Shown piece after piece: positions 6,235-29,681 of a stretch of 29,681 bases of DNA. Position numbers and translations under genes: made by a program. Position 1 is the first letter of the stretch, and each line of letters starts with the position of its first letter. This stretch comes from Chiloscyllium plagiosum (taxonomy: Eukaryota), in assembly GCF_004010195.1 (NCBI RefSeq), contig NC_057719.1, positions 7,721,028 to 7,750,708 on the forward strand. Direction: 5' to 3'. The notes under the pieces are model-generated. The model saw only the letters and a list, made by a program, of their open reading frames with translations. It was not told the DNA's origin and searched no databases.

Positions 6235-7413
6235 CACTTCACATTCAACAACAGAGCCTACAAACAAGTCAACAGAACACCTATGGGATCACCAATATCA
6301 GAGCTCATTGGGGAAGCAGTAATGCAGAGACTTGAACAAGCTGCCCTCCCATCTATCCGACCCAAACTTTGGGTCCGCTACGTGGATGACAGCTTTGTTA
6401 TCACAAAACAGAATAAATTAGATGAAAAACACAACACCATCAATAATATCCTGGCAGGCATCAAATTCACAAAAGAGAAGGCGAACGACAACAGACTCTC
6501 ATTCCTAGACGTGACAGTTGAATGTACAGTTAATGGAGAGCCTCAAACTAGCGTCTACAGAAAAGCAACAAACACAGACCAAATGCTTAACTTCAGAAGC
6601 AATCATCCCAACACCCCCAAACGGAGCTGAAACAAGACATTATTTCAATGAGCTACATCACACTGCAGCACCCAAGAACGACAAAAAGCAAAAGAAAAAT
6701 ATCTATACAACGTTTTCAAGGAAAACGGGTACCCAATAAACACAATCCGCCAATTCCTCAGAAACAAACCCAAACAAGCAGACACAGCACAACCAAAAAC
6801 TATAGCCATATTACCGTACATCAGACATATCAGAAATGACTTCCAGACTACTCAGACCCCTTGGCATCATGGTAGCCCACAAACCTACCAACACACTTAA
6901 ACAACGAGTAATGAACCTAAAGGATCCATTAGATACTACCAGCAAATCTAACGTCATTTACAAGATACCATGCAAGAAATGTAAAAAACATTACATCAGA
7001 CAAACTAGCAGGAAACTTGCCACCAGGATGTACAAACACTAGCTAGCCACCATGAGACATGAACCTCTCTCACTAGTTTCTATACATACAGATAAAGAAG
7101 GACAACTCACACATCCTAGGACAGACAAAACAGAGACATGCACGAGAATTCTTAGAGGCACGGCATTCTAACCAGAACTCCATCAATAAACACCGATTTA
7201 GATCCTATCTACCTTCCCTTGGAAAAAAAGAACTGTAAATGACATCACCCACCTGAAGAAAGCAAGACCTATAAATAGAGAGGCAGGACATACCATCAGC
7301 GCTTCACTGGAGACTCTCACTGATGATGTTACCTAGTATGGTGACGAAGCGTCTGAAAACAAGCCTTCCAGCTTATCATCAATCTGAGCTACAAATCTTC
7401 TCAAAAATCGCTA
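6235..7413 (+). mobile_element. 5'-truncated Penelope-like element (RT + GIY-YIG endonuclease + terminal repeat), disrupted
   Basis: PMGSPIS, WVRYVDD, SFLDV, YRKAT, S.HP, NGYP, LPY and NVIYKIPC..C..HYI.QTSR.L..R motifs, with stops and a frameshift. An 8-bp direct repeat ACTAAACC flanks it at 6227-6234 and 7414-7421. Confidence 0.93.
7317..7356 (+). ncRNA. Minimal type I hammerhead ribozyme motif (core mutated) in the Penelope terminal repeat
   Basis: TCA-CTGATGA-T-GTTACC(tagtat)GGTGAC-GAAg-C-GTC-TGA. GAAA is changed to GAAG. Confidence 0.75.
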
Positions 7414-7520
7414 ACTAAACCAAACTACTATTACCCAGTCCGACATTTCCAGTTTTATGTGTAGATTAAAGTCACCAATGACTTCTGCTGCCCTTTTATC
7501 ACAGACACCCAATAATTTAC

Positions 7521-7850
7521 GGCTTGAGGCACTTTCTCCCATCTCCTTACCCCAACCCCCACACACCAGGCCTTGTTATCACATAGTCTGCTATTACACA
7601 CAATCCATTGTTAGCCACTAATTGTCTACATTAGTAGCTATTCATTCCCCAAGCTGATCAGTAACCACTCCTTTGTCTGTCCAACTTCAAAATCAACTAT
7701 TTCCTAGCTACCATCAGTCCTGAGGAAGGTCACTTGACCCGAAACATTAACTCTGATTTCCCTCCACAGATACTGCCAGACCTGGTGAACTTTTCTAGCA
7801 ATTTCTGTTTTTGTTTCTGATTTCCAACATCTGCAGTTCTTTCGGATTTA
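7521..7850 (+). mobile_element. Penelope-type terminal-repeat fragment carrying a hammerhead motif (7716-7752)
   Basis: agtc-CTGAGGA-AGGTC(actt)GACCC-GAAA-caTT-AACT followed by the family tail cagat.ctgccagacctg.tga.cttttc.agca...catctgcag. Confidence 0.7.
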
Positions 7851-8246
7851 TTTACACAATATTTCATCTTGTATATTTTGTCCCATGTTGTGATTACTGT
7901 TAGCGGTCCTGTATATCACTGTCACTAATGACTTCTTTCTCCTGCTGTCTCTCATCTCCACCTAAACTGATTCCACATTCTAATCTCCTGAACCAAACTC
8001 ATCTCTAACTATTGTAAAATAGTGCTACCGTTATAAACAGTGCTAGCCCCTCCACATTTACCTGTTCTTCTTGAATGTAATATATTCCTCAATATTCAGG
8101 ACCTAAACCTTGTCACCCTGCAGCCATATCTCTGTAATAGCTATCAGATCATATTTATTTACCTAAATGTGCCCTATCAATTCATTCACTTTATTATGAA
8201 TGTTATGCGTATTCAGAGTGAGACTACTTTTGCCTTTCTGTTATAG

Positions 8247-8566
8247 TTTTTTTTTAGATTACATAAAGTGTGGAAACAGCCCCTTCAGCCCAACAAGTCC
8301 ACACCGACCCGTCAAAGCGCAACCCACCCAAACCCATTCCCCTACATTTACCCCTTCAACTCACACTACGGGCAATTTCCCATGGCCGATTTACCTAACC
8401 TGCACATTTTTGGACTGTGGGAGGAAACTAGAGCACCTGGAGGAAACACATGCAGACACAGGGCGAATGTGCAAACTCCACACAGTCAGTCGCCTGAGGC
8501 AGGAATTGAACCCAGGTCTCTGGTGCTGTGAGGCAGCAGTGCTAACCACTGTGCCACCGTGTTGCC
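8247..8566 (-). mobile_element. HE1 (V-SINE), full length
   Basis: Reverse complement of the copy at 15347-15659, with head, V-domain and tail all present. Confidence 0.93.
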
Positions 8567-8879
8567 ATTACCTTGTCTAGATTTTTGGTGAATGCTTAGG
8601 TTTTCTTTTCTCTATCCACTACTACTTTCTCTTAACCCTCATTCCTAACATTACGATTTTCCTCTTCTGTTGCCTCTAGTCTGACGTGCCATCTATTTGA
8701 CACAGTGTCCACACTTCATGACTATAAATTGCAAAGTCCTTTATAACAGCAAGTTATCCACTGTTTACTGTTTTTGCTCTCTTACCTGGTCTTAAAATGT
8801 TAAATTGCAAAGCAAGATACACAAACTGAGCTTATATAAAGAGGACGGATTTCATGGGAAGTTCTAGAGAGTACTGGAA

Positions 8880-10125
8880 AAGTATTTTGCCTTTATCAGT
8901 CAAGGCACACATTATAAGAGCAGGGAGATTATGTTGGAGCTGTTCAGAACTTAGGTTAGGTCACGGCTGGAGAATGGTGTGCAGTTCTGGTCCCTGCACT
9001 GTAGGAAGGATGTGATCGCACTGTAGGGGGTGCAGAGGAAATTCACCAGGATGCTGCCTGACTTGGAGCATTTCAGTGATGAAGAAAGGCTGTTTTCTTT
9101 AGAATAGGTTGAGGGTGGAATCTGTTACAGGTGTATAAGAAATGAGGTGCATGGACAGAGTGACTAAAAAGCAACTGTTCCCCTTCGTCAATAACAAGGT
9201 GGCATAATTTTAAGATGAAAGGCAGGAAGTTTAGAGGGGCTTTGAGGAAAGATTCTTCACCCAGTGGATATTGGAATCTGGAATGCACTGCCTGGGAGGG
9301 TAGTTGAGGCTGAATCCTCACAATCTGTAAAAAGTACTTGGATGAGTACTTGAAGTGTCATAACATTCAAGGCTACCAGCTGCCTGCAGGAAACTGGGAC
9401 TAATGTAGCTGTCATGTCGCTTTAGTGGTACAGATGTTTTACTTTTTCTTAATGTTTCCATTTATTATCTGATCTTTTTTAACTTCAGGCCAGATGGCCT
9501 GCTCCTGTTCCTATTTCTAATGTTCTTTGATGGAAGGTGTCTTCTCCCGGACTGGGCCCAGCGAAGAGGAGGCTTCCAGCTTGGTGTGGTGGTCTCGGCC
9601 TTGCTTGGTGGTCTCGGTCTAGCGTGGTGGTCTCGGTCTGGCGATCTCCAGTTGTGATGACCTCAAACTGGAGGGACGGTCTCTGCCTGGAGGGCCGATC
9701 TCCACCTGGTTTGGTGATCTTGGCCTGGCTCAGTGGTCTCAGCCTGGCTCAGTGGCCTTGGTCTGGCGGTCTCCTGTTGGCCTCATCTCGGAGGGGCAGT
9801 CTCTGCCTGGCGTGGTGGTCTTCCAATTTGGCAGCCTTGTCCTGGCGTGAAGGTCTCATCGATATGGATCATTCAGGAGCAGCATCTGGGTATTCCAGCA
9901 TTTGTTGTCTTTATCGACTTTCCCCGAACTAAGATGAACCCTATTCTACATTTTTACTCTTTTCTTGTTATATATAACATCTGTCATTAATACAGGTATG
10001 GTAACTTTAAAAGCTTTTCACTGTATTTTGTTTGTGAAGTACATGTGACAATAAATCGCTATTCTATTTTATTCAGACTTGACGGGCTGAATGGCCTTTT
10101 CTATCATGTATGATTCTACTTTCTA
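8880..10125 (+). mobile_element. CR1 3' fragment whose 3' UTR is split by an insertion at about 9435-10073
   Basis: FAFISQG..YKSREIMLEL, VQFWS and VQRKFTRMLP motifs. The UTR breaks at ggtacaga (9434) and resumes at caga-cttgacgggctgaatggcc (10074). Confidence 0.75.
9580..9857. repeat. Degenerate ~19-bp GC-rich minisatellite (TGGTGGTCTCGGCCTGGCG-like)
   Basis: Three adjacent near-exact units at 9586-9642 and roughly ten more diverged units. Confidence 0.75.
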
Positions 10126-10241
10126 TTTCCAGGCAAAAAGGAATCTGCAGTTCAGGTCAAGGGAGAATTTTCCATGTGTTTTCAAATTTGTTTTCTCTTC
10201 CAGTTGTTGTCATCTGAAAATGATAGGATGTTATGCACCGA

Positions 10242-10488
10242 CCTCAGGTGACTGACTGTGTGTAGTTTGCACGTTCTCCCCGTGTCTGCGTGGGTTTCCT
10301 CCTGGTGCTCCGGTTTCCTCCCACAGTCCAAAGATGTGCAGGTCAGGTGAATTGGCCATGCTAAATTGCCCGTAGTATTAGGTAAGGGGTAAATGTAGGG
10401 GTATGGGTGGGTTTCGCTTTGGCGGGTCGGTGTGGACTTGTTGGGCCGAAGGGCCTGTTTCCACGCTGTAATGTAATGTAATCTAATC
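10242..10488 (+). mobile_element. HE1 (V-SINE), 5'-truncated
   Basis: V-domain and tail taatgtaatgtaatctaatct present, tRNA head missing. Confidence 0.92.
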
Positions 10489-10729
10489 TCAGACCTAGTC
10501 TTCTCCAGTTATTGCACTGTGCTCCCCCTCCTGGACATTTTTCCCATTAGGTGATACTTTATAAAACAGTGCAATATTATCGCTTTTGATGAGCAACAAT
10601 TTTCACGCGCATTCTCCTTGAACAGAGTGATCCTGCTTGATTTTTATTTCACATTGTGTCAGTTTCCCCTCAAATGATGCCTAAAGATCCACTTGCCTCA
10701 TGGTTTGTACTGCTTTTTCAAATGTGTCA

Positions 10730-11260
10730 CCTTGGTCTCCCTCCTGTCGGAAAGATGTTGTGAAACTTGAAAGAGTTAGGAAAGATTTACAAGGATGTTG
10801 CCAGGGTTGCAGGATTTGAGCTACAGGGAGAGGTGAACAGACGGGGGCTGTTTTCCCTGGAATATCGAAGGCTGAGGGGTGACCTTATAGAGGTTTATAA
10901 AATCATTAGGGGCATGGATAAGGTAAAAAGACAAGGTCTTTTCCCTGAGGTCGAGAAGCCCAGAACTAGAGGGCATAGGATTAAGATGAGAGGGGAAAGA
11001 TATAAAAGGGACCTATGGGGCAGCTTCTTCACACAGAGGGTGGCGTGTATATGGAATGAGCTGCCAGAGGAAGTGGTGGAGGCTGGTACAAATACAACAT
11101 TTAAAAGACATATGGATGGATATATGAATAGGAAGGGTTTAGATGGGTATGGGCTAAGTGCTGGCAAATGGGACTAGATTAGTTAAGGACATTTGGTTGG
11201 CGTGTTTGAGTTGGACTGAAGGACCTGTTTCTGTGCTGTATGTCTCTATAATTCCATGAC
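10730..11260 (+). mobile_element. CR1 (HER1-like) LINE 3' fragment
   Basis: GLFSLEYRRLRGDLIEVYKIIRGMDKV...FFTQRVACIWNELPEEVVEAGT. Confidence 0.92.
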
Positions 11261-11423
11261 TTTCTCTGTCTTGTGCAAGGACTGACAAAACCATGAATTG
11301 ATCCATGAACCAAATCTGCCTTCATCTCTTCACAGGTGCAATTCTTTGTCAGCCTATAAGGGTCATTTATGAACAAATGCATGCTTTCCCAGGCTTCACC
11401 TATTCAAACAATTTCATTTTGAC

Positions 11424-11815
11424 TATAAGACATAGGAACAGAAATAGGCCATTCAGCCCATTGAGGAGGAGAAAGTGAGGACTGCAGATGCTGGAGATCA
11501 GAGCTTAAAAATGTGTTGCTGGAAAAGTGCAGCAGGTCAGGCAGCATCAAAGGAGAAGGAGAATCGACGTTTCGGGCATAAGCCTTCTTCAGGAATGATC
11601 GGCCTCCGGAAGCGCTCGGGCACCATTAACCACGCGGCCGCTGCGCTTTTCCAGCAACACATTTTAAGCATTCAGCCCATCGAGTCTGCTCTGCCATTCC
11701 AGAAGATCATGGCTGATCTGATAATCGTCAACTCCTCAAAATCCCCATAACCCTTGATTCCCTTCCTGACTAAAACTCTGTTTGTCTCAGCCTTGAGTAC
11801 AATTAATGACTTAAT
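11424..11815 (-). mobile_element. CR1 3' tail, split by a fold-back insertion
   Basis: ataagacataggaacagaaataggccattcagccc...atcatggctgatct, the same tail type as 3760-3900. Confidence 0.75.
11466..11668 (-). mobile_element. Short fold-back Penelope-type element with hammerhead motif (11562-11596) and 16-bp TSD
   Basis: TSD CATTCAGCCCAT(T/C)GAG at 11450-11465 and 11669-11684. Inverted arms at 11503-11533 and 11640-11669. Minus strand reads attc-CTGAAGA-A-GGC(ttat)GCCC-GAAA-C-GTC-gatt. Confidence 0.8.
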
Positions 11816-11901
11816 GAGAGGCTGTGACTTTAATTTCCTGACCTCTGCTCATTTCACATTTGGCTTTTCTCTGGAAGCTAGGGATCACCTCAACTTTTTT
11901 T

Positions 11902-12185
11902 GAACATAGAACAGGACAGCACAGGAACAGACCCTTCAGCCCATCATGTCTGTGCCAACCATAATGCTATTCTAATTTCCCATCTGCCTGCACATGGTCC
12001 ATATCCCTCTATTCTCCAAACGTTCATGTGTCTGTCTAAATAATTCTTCAGCTTTGCTTTCATATCTGCCTCTACCACCTCACCTGGCAGCATATTCCAG
12101 GCACCTACCACCCTCTGTGTAAAAGCATTTCTTGCACATCTCCTTTAAACTTCCCCTTTCTCTCTTTAAAACTTATGCCCCATAG
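11902..12185 (-). mobile_element. CR1 LINE 3' end
   Basis: gaacatagaaca tail. The minus strand encodes FKGDVQE..FTQRVVGAWNMLPGEVVEA. Confidence 0.85.
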
Positions 12186-13154
12186 TATTTGAATTGAGTG
12201 GCGCACTGGGCTATTTCAAAGGGCATTTGCGAGTCAGATACATTGCCTATCAGCTTCACACTTCCTGCAATCTGAAGTATGCAGAAATGATGCTGGAACC
12301 AGGTGTTAAAAAAGTCAATGCATCCTCGGGTAACTTTGATGAGAATTTCTTGAAAGAGTATCTTTGGGCTACAGAGCTGAGGTCCATAACTTGACAATGG
12401 AGCTTTATCAGTTTGAAAAAAGGTAGCGCTGATCATTCTTCTCAGGATCACGCATTGGAAATGATGGTTCAAATGTTGAATTCGGGTGAAGTGGTTCAAG
12501 GGTAGACGTCAACTGGATCAGGATGAGCTGATATAACTTCAAATACACAAGCTCAGTCATAGAATCATACTGCTCAGAAAGTGGCCATTCAGTTCCTCAG
12601 GCCTGGGCGACTCTTTGTAAGAGTTATCCAATTACTTTTGGCAATTAGTTCCAATGATTTATTTCCTCTTCAAGTATTTATCCAGAAAGTTATTACTGAA
12701 TCTGATTACATTTGAAGTCAATGGTACTACTATGCAGAGCACCTAACATATACGTGCAAAATCAGAATATATATTGAGCAAAACAGTTCATAATCTGGAG
12801 CTCACAATTCAACAGCTAGCTGTAATCACTATAACTACAAATGAAAACAACTTCATCCTGAAGTCAAGGCAGGACTTTACTCCAGATTACTGTGATAATT
12901 TACCTTAAATGACCTACGAGAACAATTCAAGTTCTTTACGTTGTGAGACAAGGAACAAAACCTCACAAACACTCTCCATGAAAAGTGTAGCAACACAAAA
13001 AGGAACTGCTTTGGAATGTGAGACCTGATTTACTGAGAAGCTGTCATTTTTCCAGAGTACGGGAGCAGGAAAAGGGATGGGGAGACATAGGAAGTACAGG
13101 TGACATTTATGGATCAAACATGGTTAACAGAGACACACAGATTGTGCGGCATCA

Positions 13155-13250
13155 AAAATTCTGAAGGAGGGTCACTCGACCCGTTTCCTGATTTGTCTCC
13201 ACAGGTGTTGCCAGACCTGCTGAGCTTTTCCAGCAAATTCTGTTTTGGTT
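13155..13250 (+). mobile_element. Degenerate fragment of the hammerhead-bearing repeat family
   Basis: ctgaaggaGGGTCactcGACCCg (GAAA lost) followed by gccagacctgctgagcttttccagca. Confidence 0.65.
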
Positions 13251-13984
13251 GTACAAGCTCTCTGGGGATCAATAGGGTATCTTCGGCTCACTGCACAAAT
13301 ACTAATGTATGCATTACAAAAGTCATGTGAGCAGGCACAGGAAGCTGCACATGTACAGATGGTCAAGTTATACACCATGAATGACAGCTCATGTTGGCAA
13401 CAGACAATCTGATTGAATCTTTTTTAATTTTTGAAAAGTGCATTTCCTATCACAACAACTCACTGTATAAAAATGTTTTCTCCTGTGGACCATGTTTCTC
13501 CTACCGTATAGATATTTGTGGTAATTTGAAATTTTCCAAAAGAGTAAAAGAGTTAAAGAGTAAAAGAATATTAATATAAATAATATCCTGATCATCAGCA
13601 GAAAGTTTTGCCATTGAAGTAACAGCATTATTTGAATATTTTGGCAGTCACTTCGCAAGCAAACTTCATTTACACGCGTGCCAAAATAAATAACACATGT
13701 TTCCATTTTTTCGGAAAGCAGCAGAATTTTTGAGCCACTGCCTACAGGTTATGTGAGTAATTTCCAGTGTACAATATCATACTAGCTCCAGGCTTTGGGC
13801 CATTATTAACCACATTGGCAATCCTTGCACGAGTATCAAGACAAAAGCAAAATGCTGCAGATTCTGGCAATCTGAAATGAAAATAGAAAATACAGGTCAG
13901 GCAGCAGCTGAGAAGAGAAAGAGTTAGTATTTCAAGTTGCTGACCTCTCTGAAGGTGAGCAATGTTGACTTCAAACCCAAAACC

Positions 13985-15215
13985 AGAAGAAATAGGAATA
14001 CAAATAGTCTGCTCCTCTCCTTTCCCCATAACCTTTGATTCCCTTGGTGAGCATGAATCTACCTATCTCAACCTTAAATTTGCAGAAGGATTCTGCCCCC
14101 ACAGCTCTCTGTAGGCAAGCAGGAGGTTGGAAGAACACAGCAAGCCAGGCAGCATCTGGAGGTGGAGAAGTGAACATTTCGGGTGTAACCCTTCTTCAGG
14201 ACTGGTCCTGACACGGGGACTTCTCCGCCTCCTGGTGCTGCCTGGCTTGATGTGTTCTTCCAGCCTCGTGCTTGTCTACCTTGGATTCCAACATTTGCAG
14301 TTTTTTTGTCTCTAACCACAGCTATCTGTGGCAAGGAGTTCCAAAAATTCACACTTTCTGAGAGAAGAAATTCCTCCTCCTCTCAGTCTTAAATTGGCAC
14401 CCCTTCATTCTGAGACAATGCACTCTGGCGCTAGGCTCTCCCATGAGGGGAACATCCTCTCAGCATCTACCCTGGCAAACCCCTTAAAAATCTAATATTT
14501 TTCACCGGCATCGCCTCCCACTCTTCTGAACACCAATGAGTAGAGCTCCAACCTCTATCATCTTTTCTCATTGGATAAACTTTCCGCATCCTAGTGAGAT
14601 CATCCTAGTGAAGCTTAATTGAACCGCCACCAATGAATCAATAAGGGGATCAAAACTGCTCGCAGTACACTAGATATGGTCTCAGCTGCACCTTGCACAG
14701 TTGCAGCAAGATGGCCCTACTCTTATACTCCATGTCCACTTGAAATAAGGGCCAGCATTCCACTCTCCTTCCTGATTACCTGCTGCACCTGAGCTAGCTT
14801 TCTGTGTTTCTTGCACAAGTACCCCTAAATCCATTTGTGTTGTAGCTTTCTGCAGTTTTTCGCTGTTTGAGTAATTTTTTTTTTCTGCCTTCCAAAATGA
14901 ACAACTTCACATTTCACATTTTCTCACATTGTACTCCATTTGCTGAATTTTGTCCCATTCATTTAACCTATCAATGTCTGTCTGCATCCCTCTTAACACC
15001 TGCCTTACCACCTATTTTTGTGTCATTTCCAAAATGTGGCTACAATACATTGACTTCCTTCACATTAATATATACTGTAAACAGTTGTCGTTCCAGCACT
15101 GATCCCCGTGGATCCCCACTGGTCACAGGTTGCCAGCCTGAAAAAGAACGCCTTCTCCCCACTCACTGTTTCCTGCCCGTTAGCCAATTCGCTATCCATG
15201 CCAAAGTACTACTTC
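13985..15215 (-). mobile_element. Degenerate CR1 LINE (RT to 3' end)
   Basis: WIANWLTGRKQ, PRGSVL and FKVEIGRF motifs. It is interrupted at 14113-14315. Confidence 0.85.
14113..14315. mobile_element. Short fold-back Penelope-type element with hammerhead motif (14169-14203, minus) and 14-bp TSD
   Basis: TSD CCACAGCT(C/A)TCTGT at 14099-14112 and 14316-14329. The 61-bp inverted arms at 14111-14171 and 14219-14279 match at 54/61 by hand. Minus strand reads agtc-CTGAAGA-A-GGGT(tac)ACCC-GAAA-tGTT-cact. Confidence 0.8.
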
Positions 15216-15346
15216 CAACGACAAGATGGCGATTAACACATCTGCAAGTCCACTCAAGCTGAATTATCAGATGCACCAAAGAGGGCTGTTTTAAAAGCAA
15301 AACCCTACAGATGCCGCAAGTCTGAAATAAATACAGAAAATTCTGT

Positions 15347-15659: not shown

Positions 15660-15759
15660 AAAATGCTGGGAATCTTTATCGGGTTCGCAACATCACTTGA
15701 GAGAGAAACAAACTGAATGTTTTGAGTAAATATAACTGTTCTTCAGATCTCACAGCACA

Positions 15760-17825
15760 TTCCCTACGCAACTACTACTATCAAGCCAGGGATCAGCTCT
15801 GATTCAATGGAGCGCTTGTCAGGAAGAGCACCAGTGTATACCCAAACACAAAGTGGTGTCAACCTGGTGAAGTGACCAAACAGGACTACTTCCATGCCAA
15901 ACAGCATAAGCAGCAAGTGATAGACAGAGCTAAGTGATCCCACAACCAACAGATCACTCTAAGCTGTGCAATCCTTCCACATCTAGTTGTGAATAGCAAT
16001 GGAATTAAGTAACTCACCAGAAAAGAAGGCTCCACAAATATCCCCATTGTCAATGATGGAAGAGCCCAGCATGTCAGTGCAAAAGATAAGGCTGATGCAT
16101 TTGCAACAATCTTCAACAAGAAGTACCGAGTGGATGATCCATCTCAGCCTCCTCCAGTTGTCCCCAGCATCACAGATACTAGCCTTCCACCAATTTGAGT
16201 CAGTCCACACGATATCAAATATATGGCTGGAGCCAATGGACAATCTAAAGGCTATGGGTCCTGACAACATTCTGGCAATAGCTTTCCAGTGCACTTACAA
16301 CACTGGCATCTACCCAACAATGTGGAAAATTGCCCAGATATGTCCAAATACAAAAAATAGGACGAATACAAACTGGCCAATTACCAGTAAAGTGATAGAA
16401 GGGGTCATCAACAATCCTATCAAGCATCACCTGCTCAGCAATAACCTGCTCGGTGATGCCAAGTCTGGGTTCCGTCAGAGCCACTCAGCTCCTGACCGCA
16501 CTACAGCCTCAGTTCAAACATGGATTAAAGCATTGAGTTTCAGAGGTGAGGTGAGAGACATCAAGGCCACATTCGACCAAGTGTGGCATCAAGGAGTCTG
16601 AGGAAAACTGGAAGCAATGGGTATCGGGGGCATACTCTCCAGTGGTTGGAGTCATACCTGGCACATAGAAAGATGGTTGTGGTTGCTTGTAGTCAGTCAT
16701 TTCAGCTCCAGGACATCTCAACAGCAGTTCCTCAGGGTAGTGTCCTAGGCCCAATCATCTTCAGCTGTTTCATCAATGACCCCCCCCCCCCCATCATAAA
16801 GTCTGATTGTTGCTGATTATTGCACAATGTTCAGCAGCATTTGCAATTCCTGAGATACTGAAGCAGTCAATCTTCAAATACAGCAAGACCTGGAGAATAT
16901 CTAGGTATGGATTGAGAAGTGATAAGTGGCATTCACGTCATACAAGCGCAAGGCAACAACCATCTCCAACAAGAGAGAATCTAACTATTATGCTTTGTCA
17001 TTGATAGCATTATCATCGCTGACTCCCCCACTATCAACATCCTGGAGCTGACCATTGATTAGGAACTGAATTGGACTAGCCATACAAAAATAGTGGCTCC
17101 AAAGCAGATTGGAGGCTAGGAATCCTGCAGCGAGTAACTCACCTCCTGGCTCCCCAAAGTCTGTCCACAATCTTCAAGGCACAAGTCAGGAGTGTGATGG
17201 AATACTCTCCACTGTTCTGGGTGGGGGCATCTCCAACAAATCTCAAGAAGCTTGACACCATCCAGGACAAAGCAGCCCGCTTGATTGGCACCGCATCCAC
17301 AAACATCCACCCCCTCCACCAGGACGCAGCAGCAGTGTGTACAAGATGCACTTTAAAGGAAGATTTTGAGGAAGGGTCATTCGACCGGAAACATTAACTC
17401 TGATTTCTCTCCATAGATGCTACCAGACCTGCTGAGCTTTTCCAGAAATTTCTTTTTTTTGTTTCTGATTTACAGCATCCACAATTCTTAGGTTTATATT
17501 TACACTTCAGAAATCCACCAAAGATCCTCAGACAACACCTTCCAAACCCACATACATTACCATCTAGAAGGAAAGGGCAGCAGATACATGGAAACACCAC
17601 CACCTGCAAGTTCCCTCCAAGCCACTCACGACTTTGACTTGGAAATATATCGCCATTCCTCCAGTGTAGCAGAACCTAATTCCTGGAATTCCCTCCCTAA
17701 TAGCATTGTGGCTCTACCTATAGCACATGGACTGCAGTGGTTCAAGAAGGCAGCTCACCACCACCTTCTCAAGGGCAAATGGAGATGGATAGTACATACT
17801 GGCCGAGTCAGAGAAACCCACATGG
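15760..17825 (+). mobile_element. Degenerate non-LTR retrotransposon (CR1/L2 group, family distinct from the HER1-like CR1s)
   Basis: KAMGPDNI, GIYPTMWKIAQ, GFRQSHS, DIKATFDQVWH, VPQGSVLGPIIFSCFIND, MEYSPL.W and SWNSLP motifs, with many frameshifts. Confidence 0.88.
17362..17500 (+). mobile_element. Hammerhead-bearing repeat fragment nested in the LINE
   Basis: tTGAGGA-A-GGGTC(attc)GACCg-GAAA-caTT-AACT plus the family tail, the same family as 7716-7850. Confidence 0.7.
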
Positions 17826-19790: not shown

Positions 19791-19999
19791 TCAAATGTTC
19801 ACTTTAGATAAGAATCATGAGCACTCCCCAGTGATCTGTAGTTATAGAGACATCTTTAGTAGTGGCATGCTCTAAGGCAGCACGGGTATGGGTAAACAGA
19901 GCAAAGAATACAAATGTACTTAACAGCTCAGCTTCCCATCAGTGATGTCTTAGAGGCTGACTTGAGGTTTTAGTGTGGATCAGGTGGCTGTAGATTCTT

Positions 20000-20650: not shown

Positions 20651-21075
20651 ACATGAAGTTAAATGTAGGATCCTGAAAATGATTGCTACCAATGTGGTAC
20701 ACCAACAGTGAGAAACAGGAAGATAGGGCAGATCAATGATTGCCTTGAGACTTCGTGCAGAAGAGAAGGCTTCAGCTTCTCAGGGCACTGGGACTGATAA
20801 GAGTCATCTATTCAGGAGAGGTGGGTTAATCCTCAAAGGGACCTGAACCAATATCCTTGCACGGGGGTTCACATGTGTGATTGAGGTCCTGTAGAATAAA
20901 TAGGCAGGCCAATGGGCACCAGCTTACAGTAATAGAAAAGACAAACAAATGTATAGAGTGAGAGTATAAGTTTGTACTTGAAAATGAATATTAGATTAGA
21001 AGAGACTGAGAATGACTATGAGAAATGCAAACTCATAAATACAAATCATTGGTCAGACCACATTTGAGTACTGTG

Positions 21076-21484
21076 GATGTAGGTTTGCTCACTGAGCTGG
21101 GAGGTTCATTTCAGACATTTCGTCACTCTACTAGGTAACATCTTTAGTTGTCCTCTGGGCGAAGCACTGTTGATGATTCCTGCTTTCTATTTATATGTTT
21201 GGGTTTCTTTGGGATGGGGATGACTTTTCCTGTGGTGATGTCATTTCCTGTTCTTTTTCTCAGGGGTTGGTAGATGGGATCAACAAACACGTCGAGTTAG
21301 ACCCCATCTACCACCCCCTGGGAAAAGGACATCACCACAAGAAATCATCAACGGTGCTTCACCCGGAGACCCACTGAAGATGTTACCTAGTAGGGTGACA
21401 AAACGTCTGGAAATGAACCTTCCAGCACAGCGAGCAAACCTACATCCAGAACCTCAACCTGAGCTACAAATCTTCTCAAAATTA
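21076..21484. mobile_element. Fold-back element made of two inverted Penelope 3' ends, with two hammerhead motifs and a 10-bp TSD
   Basis: TSD GAGTACTGTG at 21066-21075 and 21485-21494. Both arms resemble 7180-7410. Hammerhead motifs lie at 21111-21150 (minus) and 21371-21410 (plus). Confidence 0.85.
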
Positions 21485-21751
21485 GAGTACTGTGTCCAGT
21501 TCTGGGCACCTTATTTAAGGAAGGATGTTAAAACCCTATGAGAGTGTGTAAAGGAGATTTACTGGAATGACACCAGAAATGAGGGATTTATTTCCCAAGA
21601 GGAGGTTGAGTTTTGCCCCTTCTCTGATAGGGCCATCAACATAATGATTGAGAAAGTTTTCTTGAAAACACTTTTCAAGCCCTTTACAGTATGGCAGTTC
21701 CAGTCTACATTTGCAAAGCTAAAATCCCCTGCTATTACAACCCTATTTTTC

Positions 21752-22095
21752 TTAAGGGGCATAGGTAAGGTAGATAGTCAAAGTCTTTTCCCATTTGAAA
21801 GGGAGTCCAAAACTAGAAGACATAGGTATAAGTTGCGAGGAGAAAGATTTAAAAGGCACCACAGGGGCAACTTTTTCACATAGAGGGTGGTGCATGTATG
21901 GAATGAGCTGCCAGAGGAAGTGGTATAATGGGTACAATTACGACATCTAAAAGACATTTGGACAGGTACATGCATAGGTAAGGTTTAGAGGGATATGGGC
22001 CGAGTGCAGGCAAATGGGACTAGTTCAGTTTAGGAAACTTGGTCAGCATGGATGAGTTGGGCCAAAGGGTCAGTTTCTGTGCTGAATGACTATGT
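21752..22095 (+). mobile_element. CR1 (HER1-like) 3' end preceded by an inverted APE fragment (21600-21750)
   Basis: Plus strand LRGIGKVDSQSLFP...RGNFFT. The adjacent minus-strand piece reads RVVIAGDFSFANVDWN. Confidence 0.8.
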
Positions 22096-22718
22096 GACAC
22101 AAAATTGGGGGTACCTTTCTTGGAGCAGGGCAGATTAAGACGTGACCATATTGAGAACAGAACTAAGGAGAATATTCGATTTCCACTAGTTGGTATGTTA
22201 GTAAGGCGTGGCCATAATTTCAAGATTGTCAGTAAGAGAGTGAGGAGAAACTTCTTCACTCAGAGAATTGTTCGGGTTTGGAATGCGCTGCCTGGAAGGT
22301 GGATTCCATAGGAGGTTTGAAACGGGAGCTTTATATATATTTGACAGTGATGAATTTAGAGAGCTACGAAGGTAGGTCGGGAGAACGGAATTAGTTAGGT
22401 AATTCTTTTGGGAGCTGGTACATTCATGATGGGTTGAATGTCCTCTTTCTGCACTATTCTATGATTCTATGGCAGCTCTAGGCTCTGAAATGCACAAAGT
22501 GTAGTGGGAAAGGTTAGTGAGTTGCAAACAAAGGTAGCTCTCTGTGAATATGGTGTAGCAACAACACCAGGCACTTGGCTTAAAATGAATGAGTACAGTA
22601 CTGGGTATTCACATTCAATGGTATAATGTGTTCATGAAATACAGTAAGGAGGAAAAAGAGTGTAGCTACAATCCTGATTAGCACTGGAACGTGAGGATGT
22701 CCTTTAAGGGGCAAGGAC

Positions 22719-22908
22719 AGGAAGTGGTGGAGGCTGGTACAATTGCAATATTTAAAAGGCATCTGGATGGGTATATAAATAGGAAGGGTTCAGAGGGATA
22801 TGGGCCAAGTGCTGGCAAATGGGACTAGATTAGTTTAGGATATCTAGTCAGCATGAACGAGTTGGACCGAAGGGGTTGTTTCTGTGCTGTACATCTCCTA
22901 TGACTCAA
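22719..22908 (+). mobile_element. CR1 (HER1-like) 3' tail
   Basis: Closely similar to 18713-18890 (EVVEAGTIA.FKRHLDGY). Confidence 0.88.
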
Positions 22909-23824
22909 TGGCAGAATCCATTTAGTTAGGTTTGAAAAGTCAAAATGGAATGATCACATTCCTGGGGGCATTCTATAGACCTCCAAATAGCAAGAGAGAT
23001 ACAAGAGCAAGTCTTCAGGCATGTCAGAGGGACGGGCAAGAGCAATAGAGTGATGTTACTGGGGGATTTTAATTCTCATTGAATTCGAGAACCAGGTCAA
23101 ATGTCAAAAGTTGAGAGGAAAATGTGATTTGAAAAGAGAGATTGTGAGAACAGAATGACATGGAACAGAATGGTTAACATAAAACATAATCTCCAAATGG
23201 TGCAAACCCATCCAAATAACAAGAGGTGGGAGGGGTCCTATTTGGATTAAGGAGAGTGATAGAAACTTAGGGGCACAGGGAAAGGCTAGGATAGTTAATA
23301 AGTAGCTTTACAAAGGAAGAGAATGCTGACAAAATATTTGTAAAAGGGGCATAAGTAATGAACATAGACGGAATACTAGAAAGACGAGCTAAGTTCAGAG
23401 TCTGGATGGCTTGCATCCAAGGCTGCTGAAAGAAATGAGATGGAAATAGTAAAAGGGTTTGTAATAATCTCCCAATCTTCCCCAGTACAGGGATGGAGAG
23501 AATTGTAACCTGGCAAACAAGTCACCCATGATCTAGAAATAAACTACTACCCTGAAACATTCCCTCCACGCTATGCGGCTGCTGGAAAGTTCAACACACA
23601 TTGTTTGGCCTATCGATGATGGCTTCCAGAAACTGCCGCTGTGCAAGGACCTCCAATGGAAGGGAACATTGCAGCCCAGTCAATTTAAGCATAGGTTGTG
23701 GGTTAAAGTTTGAGAAATACTAATCGAGGTTAAAGGCATCAACAGTTAATCAGAGAGGTTTGAGTTCATCAAGGTAGGCCAGAACAGATTTGAGAAAGGC
23801 AGATCGTGGTTGACTAAAATTAAA

Positions 23825-24010
23825 CAAAGCATTGCGAATGCTGAAGAGCTTAACAAAAACAGAAATTGCTGGAGAAACTCAGCAGGTCTGACAGCATCTG
23901 TGGAAAGAAAGCATTTAATGTTTCAAGTCCAGTGATGTTAACTCCGCTTTCTCTCCACAGATGCTGCCAGACCTGCTGAGTTTCGCCAGCTATTCCTGTT
24001 TTTATTTTGT
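23825..24010. mobile_element. Fold-back copy of the hammerhead-associated repeat tail
   Basis: 58-bp inverted arms at 23855-23912 and 23946-24003 (53/58 by hand) with a 33-nt spacer. Confidence 0.8.
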
Positions 24011-24014
24011 GTTT

Positions 24015-24745
24015 GACTTGGGTAGTGATGTAGAACAGAGAGGCCTAGGAGTTCAGGCACATAATTCATTTACGTTTGTGTCACATGTAGAGAGGGTGGT
24101 TAAGAAGACATTTAGCATACTTACCTTTATTGCTCAGACCTTTTGACTACAGGAATTGGGGTGTCATGTGAAGGTTGGACAGGACATTGGTGAAGCCACT
24201 TCTTGAGAACTGTGTGCAGTTCTAGTCACCCTGTTATTGGAAGGATATCATTAAACTAGAGAGGGCCCAGAAAATATTTACCAGATGTTGCCGGGTATGG
24301 AGTGTGAGAGTTTTAAAAATAAGTTGGATAGGTTGGGACTTTTTTCACTACAGCTTAGGAAGTTGAGTGGTGATCTTATAGAGATTTATAAAATCATGAG
24401 GGACATAGATAAGGTGAATAGCAAAGGTCTTTTCCCTAAGGTGGGGGAACTCAAAACGAGAGGGCATATTTTTAAGAGGAGAGGAGAAAGATTCGTAAAG
24501 GACATGAGGGGCAACATTTTTTTTACACAGAGAGTGATTCGTGTCTGGAATGAATTGCCAGAAGAAGTGGTGGATGCAGGTACAGGTACAATGATAAAGG
24601 ACATTTGAATAAGTTATTGTATAGGAAAGATTTGGATGGATATGAGCCAAGCACAAGCAGGTGGGACTAGTTTGCTTTGGGAACATGGTCGGCGTGGACA
24701 AGTTGGACTGAGGGGTCTGTTTCTATGCTGTATGACTCTATGACT
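24015..24745 (+). mobile_element. CR1 LINE 3' fragment
   Basis: EQRGLGVQAH, MLPGME, GDLIEIYKIMRDIDKV and WNELPEEVVDAGT motifs, with tail tatgactctatgact. Confidence 0.92.
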
Positions 24746-25289
24746 AATCTAATTGAATTTTTTGCTGAAGGGAATGCCATGAACATTATCTCAGATGGAT
24801 ATCAAGGAAGTGCATTGTGGATTATGCTGATTTTTCAAACTGAAGCATGGTAAGTCGTGGTGTTCCTCAAGGGACAGTGTAGGAGCACTGATTATTGAGA
24901 TGTAAAAATGATTTCGATACTGAGTACAAAGTAATATTTCAAAATTATCTGATAATATTAAACTTGGAAGAATGGTAAACTAGAACAAGACCAATTAATT
25001 GCAACAAGACGCAAATTGACTGGCAGTCAAGTGCAGATGGAATTTAATACAAAGAAGAGAAGGGTGGGAATATTTTGATTTAATGGCATGGTCCTAAATA
25101 GGATACAAGTACAGGGGGATCTGGGAGACAATAATAGCAAAGCACTGGAATCTTGTACCTAGCAAATGGAGAAGCCAGTACAAAAACAGAGATGTTGTGC
25201 TGAACCTGTATTAAGTTTTGGTTAGACCGCAACTAGAGTATTGTGTCCAATTCTAGTTCAGGAAGGACGTTGAGGTTCCTTACAAGATA

Positions 25290-25520
25290 CTTGGGAAAAC
25301 TATCACCTGCAAGTTCCTTCCAAGCCACTCGCCATCCTGACGTGAAAATATATTGCCATTCCTTCACTGTCGCTGGGTTTCCTGGAATTCCCTCCCTCAG
25401 GACATTGCAGGGTCAATCTATAGCGTATGGACTGCGCTGGTTGAAGAAAGCACCTTCTCCAGGAGGAATAGGCAATTAATGCAGGCCCAGACAGTGACAT
25501 CCACATCCTCCAATTAATTT
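25290..25520 (+). mobile_element. 3' end of the same LINE family as 15760-17825
   Basis: cacctgcaagttcc.tc.aagccactc...atattgccattccttcactgt matches 17600-17760. Confidence 0.8.
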
Positions 25521-25734
25521 TGACAAAAATATATCCAAGCCTTCTGCCTAGAAAACTGCAGGTGCTGGAATCCAAAGTAGACAAGCTTGTCTGCTTTGGT
25601 ACATGCCTGGCTGCTATCTTATTCGGAATCCTGAGAGAAAGCTGTTGTTGAAGGAGGAACTTCTTTACCCAAAGAATTGTGAAATTCCGTGCCCAGTGAA
25701 GCAGTTGAGGCTACCTCATTGGATTTTATTTTTA

Positions 25735-26023
25735 TTAGATTCCCTACAGTGTGGAAACAGGCCCTTCTGCCCAACAAGTCCACACTGACCCTCCGAAGAG
25801 TAACCCACCACCCTCTGACTAACACACCTAACCTATGGGCAATTTAGCAAGGCCAATTCACCTGACCTGCATATCTTTGGACTGTGGACTGTGGGAGGAA
25901 ACCCACACAGACACGGGGAGAATGTGCAAACTCCACACAGACAGTTGCCTGAGGGCAGAATTGAACCTGGGACCTTGGTGCTGTGAAGCAGCAGTGCTAA
26001 CCACTGAGCCACCATGCCACCCC
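25735..26023 (-). mobile_element. HE1 (V-SINE)
   Basis: Reverse-complement head, V-domain (with a small deletion) and tail. Confidence 0.9.
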
Positions 26024-26259
26024 ACAGTTGAGCATTTTTCAGGGAAGGATAGTAAAGGAATTAAGGGTAATGGTGAGAAGGTGGGTAAGTGGAGCTTGGT
26101 CCAAGAAAAGATCAGCCGTGATCTTATTGAATGGCAGAGCAGACTTCATGGGTCAAATGGCTCATAGTTCTTCCGTTCTCAACAGGCAGCCTGCGCTCCA
26201 ACTCTCAGTCAATGCAATGCTGAAGGTTTTGAGAACATGGTTGAGAAAGTTAAAATTAG

Positions 26260-26540
26260 AAAATAAACAGAGGATGCTGGAAAACAGAAAAAAAACCCTC
26301 CGAAATTGCAGGAGAAACTCAACTCTGAAGAACTGAATAAGTGTGACTGGACCCGAAGGGTTAACTCTGCTTTCTGTCCACAGATGCTGCCAGACCAGCT
26401 GAGTTTCTCCAGCAATTTCTGAGTTTGTTTCTGTTGAAATTATATTTTAAAAACCGAAAGAACTGCCAGAAATCAGAAACAAAAACAGAAATCGCTGGAA
26501 AAGGCCCAGCAGCATCTGTGGAGAGGAAATGGTTAATGCA
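26260..26540. mobile_element. Cluster of three alternating-orientation fragments of the hammerhead-associated repeat
   Basis: Minus 26260-26335, plus 26335-26435 (decayed core ggacccgaagggttaact) and minus 26455-26540. Confidence 0.65.
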
Positions 26541-26797
26541 AGGAATCCCTGAGCTCACCGGTGTGCGAACACCTTACCCCAACCCCCGCAGCTACACAGA
26601 GTGGTTTGAAGACAAAGTTTACAAAGTGCTCCTGTGTTCCAATGGATGCTTCAATATCCATCCTCTCAGACTGCCTCTCCCCTTGTGCATCCAAACCAGG
26701 CGCCACTCCAGTGCAGAAACAGTGTGGGGCAGGCGGTTAGTGCAGAAATGGGGTTAATGGGCAATCCAGCCGTTTTACCGACAATGCATCCATCAAA

Positions 26798-26829
<32 letters not shown>
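26798..26829. repeat. Compound microsatellite (CT)7(CA)9
   Basis: Read directly from the sequence, about 145 nt into TSHR intron 1. Confidence 0.95.
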
Positions 26830-26972
26830 TTGTTCCTGTCCAGTCAATTCCCAAGCTGCAGGTAAACTCTGGGGAGGGGTGGAGGGGAACAGACTGGGGA
26901 AAGGTCGGTCACATTAACTCTCTGCGGATCAAAAAAAAAGGTTGTTTCAAAAAGGGACAGCAAGGTACTCAC

Positions 26973-27139
26973 ATCTTCTCGGTGTTCAGGGGAAAGGACG
27001 GGATGTGATCGATGAATTTGCAGGTTATCTGGAAAATATTCCACCCTGAGCATTCGCACACACTGGGGCAGCGATCGGCGGCGCTCAGTCGCAGGGAGAC
27101 AGTTGTAATCACCAACACTGGCAGATCCTGCACTTTCAT
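26973..27139 (-). CDS. TSHR: Thyrotropin receptor, coding exon 1 (signal peptide + N-terminal cysteine cap)
   Basis: ATG at 27139 has A at -3 and follows an in-frame TAA (27166-27164). It encodes MKVQDLPVLVITTVSLRLSAA-DRCPSVCECSGWNIFQITCKFIDHIPSFPLNTEK, matching the TSHR pattern C..CEC....F..TCK.I..IPS.P..T. The exon ends GAG AAG AT|GTGAGT (phase-2 donor) after 167 coding nt and splices in frame to exon 2. Confidence 0.93.
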
Positions 27140-27580
27140 CCTCCTGATCAATGCCACTCGATTTTAGTTTTGGTTTGTGCACGGCTGTGGCTTCCTTTCT
27201 CTTTCCGCACTCTCTCGCTTTAAAGTTTCCCCTCTTCAAACTGAATAGCTGCGAATCCCCAATTGCCCCCAGAGGTGGTTTTCTCTGCCTCTCAGCGCCA
27301 GGAGCTTTTACACGGGGCAGACTCTCTCAGTTTCACGCAGCAAGGCGAGCACTGAGAGAGTGTGTTCCAGAGCCTGCACACTGACAGACAGGTCATCTCC
27401 CATCGACCATTACAAGAAGAAAGTCAATTTTTTTTTCAAAATAAAAACCCAGTTAAAACTTAAAGAGCACAAGACTGAGTTTATGATAAAGCATGTTTGC
27501 TTTTCATAAGGAAACCAACAGCCTGTTTTCAAATCATAGAAAAGTTACAGCCATCCAACCTCTGAATAAACTGATTCTAA
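27140..27580 (-). promoter_or_regulatory. Probable TSHR 5' UTR and proximal promoter
   Basis: Repeat-free stretch directly upstream of the start codon, with visibly more CpGs than the intron. No minus-strand ATG occurs between 27140 and about 27393. The TSS cannot be placed and there is no clear TATA box. Confidence 0.55.
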
Positions 27581-29098
27581 TCTTATTCATTCACGGAATG
27601 TGGATATTATTGCCCAGGCCAACGTGTATTAGCTATCCCCAACTGCCCAGAGAGCAGTTAAGAGTAAACCAACATTGCTTCAGGTCTCCATTGTTGGCCA
27701 GACTGGGGAAAGGTGGAAGATTTCCTTCCCCAAAGGTCATCAGTGAACCAGATGGGCTTTTACTAACAATTGTCAACAGTCTCATGGTCATCATTAGACT
27801 TTATTTTAAACAAAATTGAATTCAAATTCCACCATCTGCCATCACGGATATTTGAGCCCAGATCCCCAGGACATTACAGTGGATGTGGTGTATATGGACT
27901 TCATCAAGGCATTTGAGAGGGTTCCCCATGGTAGGCAAATTCATAAAGTCAGGAAGTATTGGATACAAGGAAATGTGGCTATCTGGATTCAGAATTGGCT
28001 GGCTGACAGAAGGCAGAGAGTGGTTGTAGATGGAAAGTATTCTGCCTGGAGGTCAGTGTTGAGTGGGGTCCCGCAGGGCTCTGTTCTTGGGCCTCTGCTC
28101 TTTGTAGTTTTTATAAATTACGTGGATGAGGAGGTTGCGGGGTTCCTTAGTAAATTTGCAGATGACACAAAGCTTGGTGGTGTCGTCGATAGTATAGAGG
28201 GCTACTGTAGGCTGCAGCGCGACATAGACAGGATGCAGAGCTCGGCTGAGAAATGGCAGATGGAGTTCAACCTGGATAAATGCAAAGCGATGCAATTTGG
28301 AAGGTCACACTCGAATGCTGAATATAGGATTAAAAACAGGATTCTTGGCAGTGTGGAGGAACAGAGGGATCTGGGTGTGCAAGAACATAGATCCCTCAAA
28401 GTTGCCACCCAAGAAGATAGGGTTGTTAAGAAAGCATGTGGTGTTTTGGCTTTCATTAACAGGGGGATCGAGTTCAAGAGCCGTGAGGTTTTGCTGCAGC
28501 TCTACAAGTCCCTGGTGAGACCACACTTGGAATATTGTGTCCAGTTCTGGTCGCCCTACTATAGGAAAGATACAGAGGCTTTGGAGAGGGTGCGAAGAAG
28601 GTTTAACAGGATGCTGCCTGGACTGGAAGGCTTGCATTATGAAGAAAGGCTGAATAAGCTTGGACTTTTTTCTCTGGAGAGAAGGAGGAAGAGAGGAGAC
28701 CTGATCGAGGTGTACAAAATAATGAGAGGAATAGATAGAGTCAATAGCCAGAGACTTTTCCCCATGGCAGGATTGACTGGTACGAGGGATCATAGTTAGA
28801 AGATATTAGGAGGAAGGTATAAAGGAGACGTCAGAGGTAGGTTCTTTACACAGAGAGTTGTGAATGCATGGAATGCGTTGCCAGTGGTTGTTGTGGAAGC
28901 AGAGTCATTGGGGACATTTAAGCAACTGCTGGACTTGCACATGAATAGCAGTGAGTTGAGGGGTGCGTCGGTTAAGTTACTATGTTTTACATGAGGATTA
29001 AATCTCGGCACAACATCGTGAACCAAAGGGCTTGCTCTATGTTCTATTACCAGGATCACTGGATTAATGGTGTAGTGATAATACCACAAGGCTATTTA
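27580..29098 (-). mobile_element. tRNA-derived SINE (27580-27877 + 29051-29098) split by a CR1 insertion
   Basis: The minus strand has an A-box-like agccttgtggta at ~29090 and a B-box-like ggctcaaatatc at ~27855. Its 3' tail resembles the LINE tail at 25470-25520. Confidence 0.65.
27878..29045 (+). mobile_element. Young 5'-truncated CR1 LINE (RT domain to 3' end)
   Basis: Long open frame VDVVYMDF.KAF, GVPQGSVLGPLLF, KFADDTKLGG, LVRPHLEYCVQFWSP, with one premature TAG at 28797-28799. ATTAC flanks it at 27873-27877 and 29046-29050. Confidence 0.95.
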
Positions 29099-29166
29099 TT
29101 AGCTCCCTTTTCAGCAGCTGGTCTGCAGTCTTGCAGTTTACAGTGCTTCAGGGGTAGATCAGGTTG

Positions 29167-29459
29167 CGTTTAAATGAATTGAAGAAATCACCAAACTGGA
29201 CAAAAAATTCCAGACTAGGAGAAAGTGAGCACTGCAGATGCTGGAGATCAGAGTTGAAGAGCGTGGTGTTGGAAAAAGCACGTCAGGTCAAGCAGCATCT
29301 TCATTCCTTTGAACGTTTAAATGAATTGAAGAAATCACCAAACTGGACAAAAAATTCCAGACTAGGAGAAAGTGAGCACTGCAGATGCTGGAGATCAGAA
29401 TTGAAGAGTGTGGTGTTGGAAAAGCACGTCAGGTCAAGCAGCATCTTCATTCCTTTGAA
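29167..29459. repeat. 147-bp tandem duplication
   Basis: 29167-29313 and 29314-29459 differ by two substitutions and one A-run indel. Confidence 0.95.
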
Positions 29460-29681
29460 GAGCTTATGCTCAAAATGTTGACTGTCCTCTGCTCGGATGC
29501 TGCCTGACCAGCTGTGCTTTCCTAGCATCTCTGGATCAGTGGTGCTGGAAGAGCACAGCATCCGAGGACAGGCAAAATCGACGTTTCGGGCAAAAGCCCT
29601 TCATCAGGAATAAAGGCAGAGAGCCTGAAGCGTGGAGAGATAAGCTAGAGGAGGGTGTGGGTGGGGATAGAGTAGCATAGA
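29218..29681. mobile_element. Rearranged cluster of the Penelope-type repeat family also seen at 11466
   Basis: gagaaagtgag.actgcagatgctggagatcaga ends with fragments in both orientations. It runs off the window end. Confidence 0.75.
29576..29611 (-). ncRNA. Minimal type I hammerhead ribozyme motif with intact catalytic core
   Basis: Minus strand AUUC-CUGAUGA-A-GGGC(UUUU)GCCC-GAAA-C-GUC|GAUU. All core nucleotides, a 4-bp stem II, the palindromic ACGU stem III and a GUC cleavage triplet are present. Stem I is short with one U-U pair. Confidence 0.75.

Follow-up and report, generated by a model that had tools for sequence, protein, structure and literature searches.

Minimal hammerhead motifs of Penelope-like retrotransposons in the shark Chiloscyllium plagiosum: decaying insertions and a probable leader-RNA origin of the short Neptune copies

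Introduction

Massive dispersal of minimal hammerhead ribozyme motifs from truncated Penelope-like elements of vertebrates was described by Cervera and de la Pena in 2014 (PMC4209133); the class itself, the dispersal as single motifs, the U3-A8 core variant and the opposite-strand pairs are all already in print there. Neptune and Poseidon were the only Penelope clades that one study found in vertebrates (bioRxiv 10.64898/2026.07.22.740005), Neptune being defined by a Zn-finger-like CX2-5CxxC linker between the reverse transcriptase (RT) and the endonuclease (EN), and the role of the hammerhead in Penelope-like elements has been called unknown (both PMC8557442). For a Poseidon element of the anole, priming in vitro occurred at two sites in the 5' part of the RNA with both target strands extended, the hammerhead was dispensable, and unprocessed RNA was the main substrate (PMC11167929). 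One chondrichthyan with retrozymes, i.e. tandem forms, has been reported (bioRxiv 10.64898/2026.07.22.740005). Here we analyze a stretch of 29,681 nucleotides from the shark Chiloscyllium plagiosum (assembly GCF_004010195.1, contig NC_057719.1, positions 7,721,028 to 7,750,708 of the forward strand; the whole stretch is referred to as the window), in which a first-pass annotation had recognized at least eight minimal hammerhead motifs.

The explanation that we favor, and regard on balance as probable, is that these motifs belong to dead Penelope insertions decaying neutrally, with most short Neptune copies representing run-off complementary DNAs (cDNAs) of the 5' leader.

Results

Hammerhead motifs in the window

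Almost certainly, the motifs of the window are minimal type I hammerheads that belong to Penelope-like retrotransposons of the Poseidon and Neptune types. Family A denotes the Poseidon-type copies and families B (B1, B1b and B2), C, D and E the Neptune-type ones. The motifs are also labeled by core position (7320, 7720, 11592, 14199, 17366, 21147, 21374 and 29607), of which 7320, 21147 and 21374 belong to family A and the remaining five are Neptune-type. Wider comparisons rest on a genome sample of 178 evenly placed 10-kb stretches (1.716 Mb readable), with sampled loci numbered from L001 onward. The termini and associated features of the window (ORF, open reading frame; pLTR, pseudo-long terminal repeat; UTR, untranslated region) are listed below.

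6232..7240, plus strand: decayed 3' part of a Poseidon-type Penelope ORF with RT core (YVDD), thumb and GIY-YIG remnant, stops and frameshifts; RVT_1 E 6.7e-5, under the Pfam cut-off
7270..7277, plus strand: TATA-like box in the Poseidon pLTR, ~50 nt ahead of the core; seen by eye in most long copies among L001-L030
7317..7356, plus strand: Poseidon-type minimal hammerhead with an A15.1>G lesion; tail to about 7412
7716..7752, plus strand: decayed hammerhead of the old Neptune-type family C; element about 7590-7850 with 3'UTR and decayed TATA region
11562..11596, minus strand: hammerhead of Neptune family B1 with an intact core; its first base is the A lying four bases ahead of C3, and its tail reaches about 11468
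13157..13250, plus strand: family C trace with the second half of the core deleted
13845..13960, minus strand: further decayed Neptune-type terminus, beyond the first-pass list, with a relative at about 13908-13960
14111..14281, both strands: family D fold-back pair, hammerhead 14169-14203(-) with ATGT, plus-strand arm without core; one long hairpin, -128 kcal/mol
17362..17399, plus strand: family C hammerhead carrying three lesions, its tail reaching about 17500
21090..21430, both strands: head-to-head Poseidon pair with hammerheads 21111-21150(-) (G5>A, ATGT) and 21371-21410(+) (G12>A)
23852..24006, both strands: fold-back pair of family C, first half of the core missing, beyond the first-pass list
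26333..26534, both strands: family C trace at 26333-26366(+) and a facing tail
29449..29530, plus strand: older B-type copy with stem II GAGC/GCTC and decayed core
29576..29611, minus strand: hammerhead of Neptune family B2, the only intact one, with a 2-bp stem I; the 3'UTR runs to the window end

All eight motifs lie at the coordinates given by the first-pass annotation, as do its three decayed traces (near 13160, 26345 and 29450). A relaxed descriptor (at most 2 mismatches over 13 core and palindrome letters, stem II of 4 bp) returned 7 matches in the window vs a mean of 0.23 in 30 dinucleotide shuffles; six of these are among the eight sites and one, 27743(-), is unrelated. The complete pattern of core, 4-bp stem II, ACGT palindrome and C17 is held by 29576-29611(-) alone, so that the view of eight full motifs holds for their positions and not for their integrity. 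The other seven carry one to three lesions each, in core, palindrome or stem. Core letters are intact in four of the eight (7720, 11592, 14199 and 29607), and only 29607 passes on every feature. Specifically, 7320 reads GAAG in place of GAAA; 7720 and 11592 each miss one stem II G, the former also having ACAT in place of ACGT; 14199 combines an ATGT palindrome with a broken stem I; 17366 shows C3>T, a mismatch in stem II and ACAT; 21147 shows G5>A and ATGT; and 21374 shows G12>A. Several of these lesions (ACAT, ATGT and G12>A) are of the CpG type. An Rfam search of the window matched no hammerhead family, even at E<=5.

The stem II variants listed in the first-pass annotation do exist, with two amendments: GGGUC/GACCC is the family majority rather than the reading of 7720 or 17366, and GAGC/GCUC sits in the copy with the decayed core (29450).

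Assignment to Penelope-like elements

That the motifs form Penelope termini, as the first-pass annotation had proposed, is borne out by RT and GIY-YIG remnants upstream of them. In the window the remnant at 6232-7240 adjoins the 7320 motif in the order ORF, TATA-like box, motif; PF00078 and PF26215 are present in its relatives. Among named relatives of the retroelement proteins of the window, the best are for the most part carpet shark and ray sequences. In the motif at 7317, A9, the extra U and G10.1 spell ATG (7326-7328), a likely start codon, and the frame behind this ATG is open in the 21374 copy. Family A, with 685 exact matches genome-wide to one tight pattern, is devoid of the Zn-finger linker, and its ORF begins at stem II. 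In a second Poseidon-like family (L093, L122, L139 and others; about ten sampled copies), stem I reads GCA/TGC and stem II is mismatched internally.

Elsewhere in the genome, long copies of families B-E run from a GIY-YIG end through a pyrimidine-rich 3'UTR to the motif and then the tail. Locus L071 shows YIDD and GIY-YIG followed by a B-type motif, and L076 shows YIDD, DKRG, a C-x4-C-x2-C linker and GIY-YIG followed by a B-type motif; families C and E are joined to GIY-YIG remnants in L167, L094 and L060. The Pfam GIY-YIG scores (E 0.0017 for L071 and about 0.002 for L022) stay under the cut-off because the frames are decayed. The linker motif is consistent with an assignment of B-E to Neptune, Nematis having the same linker, while family D is provisionally placed with the Neptune type by its shared tail only; the clade names Neptune and Poseidon rest on such motifs and on the vertebrate clade range (bioRxiv 10.64898/2026.07.22.740005).

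The tail runs on into the ORF start, and at 264 loci the motif is directly joined to it; the same sequence is therefore also the 5' leader of an ORF-bearing RNA. The subfamily of the intact motif (29576-29611) agrees with loci in which motif and ORF start form one continuous stretch. Features of the pLTR of EN-containing Penelope-like elements are present as a repeat before the ORF start, two clusters of 3' ends and inverted truncated copies (117 of the 201 copies defined below). Judged by eye, the copies are pieces of pLTRs, in which neither a Pol III head nor an A-rich or simple-repeat tail is visible, and the short copies are probably neither short interspersed elements (SINEs) nor products of self-cleavage.

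Copy number, covariation and decay

The very large genome-wide population expected by the first-pass annotation was found: the exact-core pattern CTGANGANG-N8-18-CGAAACGT has 133,284 matches in the 3.56-Gb assembly (~37 per Mb) vs 53 for the reversed pattern used as control, and the U3-A8 core family adds 1,835 matches vs 157 in its control. The genome sample holds 69 exact cores, of which 56 have a stem II of at least 4 bp, a stem I of at least 2 bp and H17. Counting decayed sites, it holds 261 motif-homologous sites (0 in the reversed sequence), which extrapolates to about 540,000.

Family majorities keep the core CUGANGA and GAAA, with C3-G8 or U3-A8, together with stem pairing. The extra base after A9, G10.1-C11.1 and a paired stem II are present both in the 56 of 69 exact cores and in an alignment of 10 hand-picked related copies from about five lineages. 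N17 is C in 29 of 35 copies and T in 6, and ACGT is the majority palindrome in most families, this tetranucleotide also being part of the search pattern. In the 10-copy alignment (analyzed without phylogenetic correction), changes on both sides were seen in 5 of 9 pairs, including three stem I pairs and the 3-8 pair; the covariation score was 0.42 vs 0.04-0.14 for slid controls and was reached by 0 of 500 shuffles. The covariation of stem I noted in the first pass likewise holds among 30 Poseidon loci (TCA/TGA in 12, CCA/TGG in 5).

The covariation lies between master lineages, the active masters having kept the hammerhead under selection, and does not extend to selection on dispersed copies. 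Among 99 young copies, the non-CpG mismatch to the subfamily majority was 31/990 (3.1%) in the core, 20/693 (2.9%) in stem II and 93/2755 (3.4%) in the tail, with CpG mismatch at 11-22%. Dispersed copies drift neutrally, without selection on the core. Among 201 copies, 117 lie in head-to-head (fold-back) pairs, 79 are solo and 5 are same-strand tandems. Few dispersed copies could cut, because the fold-back pairs bury the motif in long hairpins and monomers have no stem III. Overall, the first-pass reading stands as to identity and numbers; as to function, seven of the eight window copies are damaged, and a same-strand dimer neighbor is available to 5 of the 201.

Two unlinked loci (L241:930-1640 and L242:887-1660) contain shared 281-nt tandem units comprising the motif, the tail and the first 115 nt of the ORF region. 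They share diagnostic changes, including A9>G in unit 2, and retain both motifs, which probably reflects one master RNA ending in a short retrozyme-like array. Other same-strand motif pairs occur elsewhere at a spacing of 253-281 nt.

Ends of the short Neptune copies

For the analysis of copy ends, 335 of 341 tail anchors were aligned to one of 8 long reference copies, 221 of these passed 86% identity over 45 nt, and removal of 20 (N or locus edge) left 201 copies. Positions are given relative to the cut site (0), which places C3 at -28 and the start A, four bases ahead of it, at -32. The 5' ends pile up at -33..-29, where 58 of the 109 copies at risk stop (14% per nt; 20 of 46 among solo copies alone). 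Further upstream the rate is 0.6-0.8% per nt (15 of 38 end at -100..-37, 0.8% per nt), and within the motif (-28..-4) 72 of 181 do (2% per nt). At the cleavage site itself (-3..+3) there were 14 ends among 195 copies (1.1% per nt), not above the neighboring interval. An alignment artifact behind the pile-up can be rejected, as a 3'UTR-like flank was found in none of the 58 copies stopping at -33..-29 vs 26 of 26 long controls. Genome-wide, 40,105 matches from -32 fall to 13,731 when seven more upstream bases are included. No such fall occurs across the cut site: a pattern that starts there has 86,718 matches and one that spans it has 92,137. Copies beginning at the cut site can therefore be dismissed as a major group. 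Reads of one single-cell polyA RNA run and contigs of three other runs repeat the step at -32, where two subfamilies have loose ends.

The 3' ends cluster at about +56..+68 and +97..+101, corresponding to the optional tail of Penelope-like elements. Direct repeats of at least 8 nt flank 12 of 42 solo short copies vs 1.4 for shuffled pairs (one of the 12 is probably an inversion remnant), from which it follows that many short copies were inserted at their present size. The 5' pile-up, the two 3' end sites and the absence of a cut-site excess are newly measured features of the short Neptune copies.

The position -32 has further properties. A TATA-like box lies 29-32 nt before this A in 6 long copies of the older families C and E. 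The Neptune stem I, of at most four pairs, ends at the same base. The A stands in what we take to be an initiator-like context. On these three grounds (TATA spacing, context and stem I end) it is a candidate transcription start.

A splice acceptor at the 5' edge of the motif, as in D. virilis, was also considered and is disfavored: families C, D and E do have pyrimidines and an AG there, but the B families are without the AG, short C copies retain it, and an intron would not fit given the position of the TATA-like box. A separate, strong splice-acceptor-like stretch (TTAAC, pyrimidines, CAG) occurs just behind the cut site at 7745-7772, at 17392-17418 and in the C and E families genome-wide; it directly precedes ATGCTG and is too near any donor inside the motif for a normal intron.

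Discussion

Origin of the short Neptune copies

For most of the short Neptune copies the probable source is the 5' leader of uncleaved RNA, of which they would be run-off cDNAs. The RT of the element would prime within the leader, copy 90-130 nt and run off the 5' end of the RNA; two such cDNAs, one per nicked strand, might then be joined head to head into a fold-back pair. The short copies hold the whole motif, hence their RNA templates would have been uncut. To the more specific proposition, that the Neptune transcript opens with the first base of stem I and that several hundred thousand copies are strong-stop-like cDNAs of the uncut leader, we give about even weight. If true, the genome would preserve, in fossil form, evidence that Penelope hammerheads leave the transposition template unprocessed in vivo, and the fold-back insertions would derive from two joined leader cDNAs. 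Any cleavage in active masters is probably slow, proceeding as a dimer or with protein help on RNA other than the usual template. Our best guess as to its role, held with low confidence, is that the hammerhead acts as an off-switch removing the cap (Neptune) or the cap and start codon (Poseidon).

A number of points weigh against this reading. The 72 of 181 ends inside the motif need end trimming as an extra assumption, and both arms of a fold-back pair enter the 201-copy set as separate copies. Part of the fall from 40,105 to 13,731 is due to subfamilies that differ upstream, and neither cut-site pattern is nested in the other. The RNA step at the -32 A reflects copy ends in host transcripts, because motif reads come from both strands and no begin or end peak was seen in one single-cell polyA run, which is a weak test. 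The B families keep TTATCT 32 nt before the start A (about 29638-29643, minus strand, in the window), which is not a canonical TATA. Poseidon 5' ends were judged by eye at 30 loci only, and the in vitro precedent is a Poseidon rather than a Neptune element. The covariation counts few events, the 10 copies being hand-picked from about five lineages. Finally, no intact pLTR-ORF-pLTR element was found in the three loci examined, which hold short tandems and one partial copy only.

The most serious competitor, which we nevertheless consider unlikely, holds that the short copies are ordinary 5'-truncated 3' ends of elements, the pile-up resulting from microhomology with an ATT nick or from a pause of the RT. 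Heavy 5' truncation is indeed the standard picture (PMC8557442), the anole element PAc prefers ATT targets (PMC11167929), B copies start at ATT, and some target duplications overlap this starting ATT. On the other hand, the same start is used by families C and E, which read AGTT or AGCT (23 of 45 keep all four bases, ~14 of these 23 showing, by eye, unrelated sequence within a few bases upstream); the TATA spacing indicates the same base as the copy start; and an RT held up by a structure should halt 3' of it.

Alternatively, the short copies might be self-propagating non-autonomous elements, SINE- or retrozyme-like, with an internal promoter and mobilized by the Neptune protein, a scenario to which we attach a low probability. 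It would account for the fixed 5' and 3' ends and the target duplications, an internal promoter is known from the Penelope element of D. virilis (PMC2377424), and the 281-nt tandem of motif and ORF start recurs at two loci with shared changes. Subfamily variants are, however, common to short copies and to long copies reaching the ORF end, same-strand tandems are only 5 of 201, and PAc needs RNA beyond the priming site (PMC11167929), which the short copies do not have.

That the dispersed copies form a large working ribozyme population cutting host transcripts as dimers is highly improbable: both stems are kept in ~80% of exact-core copies and the motif is present in polyA RNA reads, but the core evolves without selection, most copies sit in fold-back hairpins, the one RNA run (weak as a test) showed no RNA ending at the cut site, even dimers have low activity in published work (PMC4209133), and only 1 of 9 Xenopus dimers was cut (bioRxiv 10.64898/2026.07.22.740005).

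With the leader-cDNA origin as the preferred explanation, more than 100,000 young insertions have ends that can serve as a record of the RNA template, and the sharp start at the 5' edge of the motif without a clear cut-site excess gives the in vitro result on the anole element (PMC11167929) a counterpart in vivo that can be tested. For annotation, repeats of 90-130 nt and fold-back repeats are to be filed as Penelope pieces.

Other features of the window

The window consists mostly of long interspersed element (LINE) pieces and SINEs, which we take to be CR1/L2 and HE1, respectively. Decayed LINE RT frames lie at 27810-28799, 15993-16601 and elsewhere (RVT_1 E 1.8e-18 for 27810-28796), and their C-terminal DNA has a GATGCTGCCTG stretch that mimics the tail anchor and produces false anchor matches. 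A GC- and CpG-rich spacer of ~45 nt (11597-11640, minus strand) separates the 11592 copy from an inverted tail and was possibly captured from another RNA at the junction. The region 29167-29423 is a 147-nt direct duplication (98% over 110 nt) holding a tail without motif, and 9563-9856 is a degenerate tandem array of a 19-nt repeat. Rfam microRNA matches (E 2.5e-4 to 0.4, far under the gathering scores) are fold-back hairpins, and a host exon at 13745-14062 was rejected, the region being another decayed terminus.

Comparison with known systems

In the literature searched, we found no shark count of these motifs and no 5' pile-up, Lunse et al. 2017, Repbase, Dfam and most subscription papers being outside our reach. 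The closest described system is that of PMC4209133, with which the shark motifs share the type I core with one extra base after A9, G10.1-C11.1, the palindromic 15.2-16.2 and the absence of stem III; in both, a genome holds many families, the motifs are mostly single and dispersed, and the U3-A8 variant and opposite-strand pairs occur. The text of that paper available to us and two of its supplements name no shark. The largest vertebrate totals in it are about 4,000 for coelacanth and 9,000 for X. tropicalis, compared with the 133,284 exact cores reported here. The Neptune-type stems of the shark are also shorter, with 4-5 bp in stem II and 2-4 bp in stem I.

A second close relative is PAc of Anolis (Frangieh et al. 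2024, PMC11167929). As in PAc, the family A ORF starts at the onset of stem II and the cut falls ~25 nt behind the start codon, with a tail in addition, and the B families have two tail ends 35-40 nt apart. Unlike in PAc, the leader contains the entire Neptune motif, with ~145 nt separating it from the likely start codon. Neither short leader copies nor a 5' end pile-up is described in the examined text of that paper.

Non-LTR retrozymes likewise combine very many type I hammerheads (126,247 in axolotl) with a pLTR-derived or pLTR-related origin (PMC7229834). They are head-to-tail tandems, and the axolotl motifs are canonical; in contrast, the shark motif is minimal, with tandems making up 5 of 201 copies, none of them in the window, and with rare 281-nt arrays. 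The shark total equals the axolotl figure in a far smaller genome, which measures the success of the transposon and not the function of the ribozyme. Overall, the motifs represent a class already known, to which the shark genome adds a large number of copies and a single mechanistic clue open to testing.

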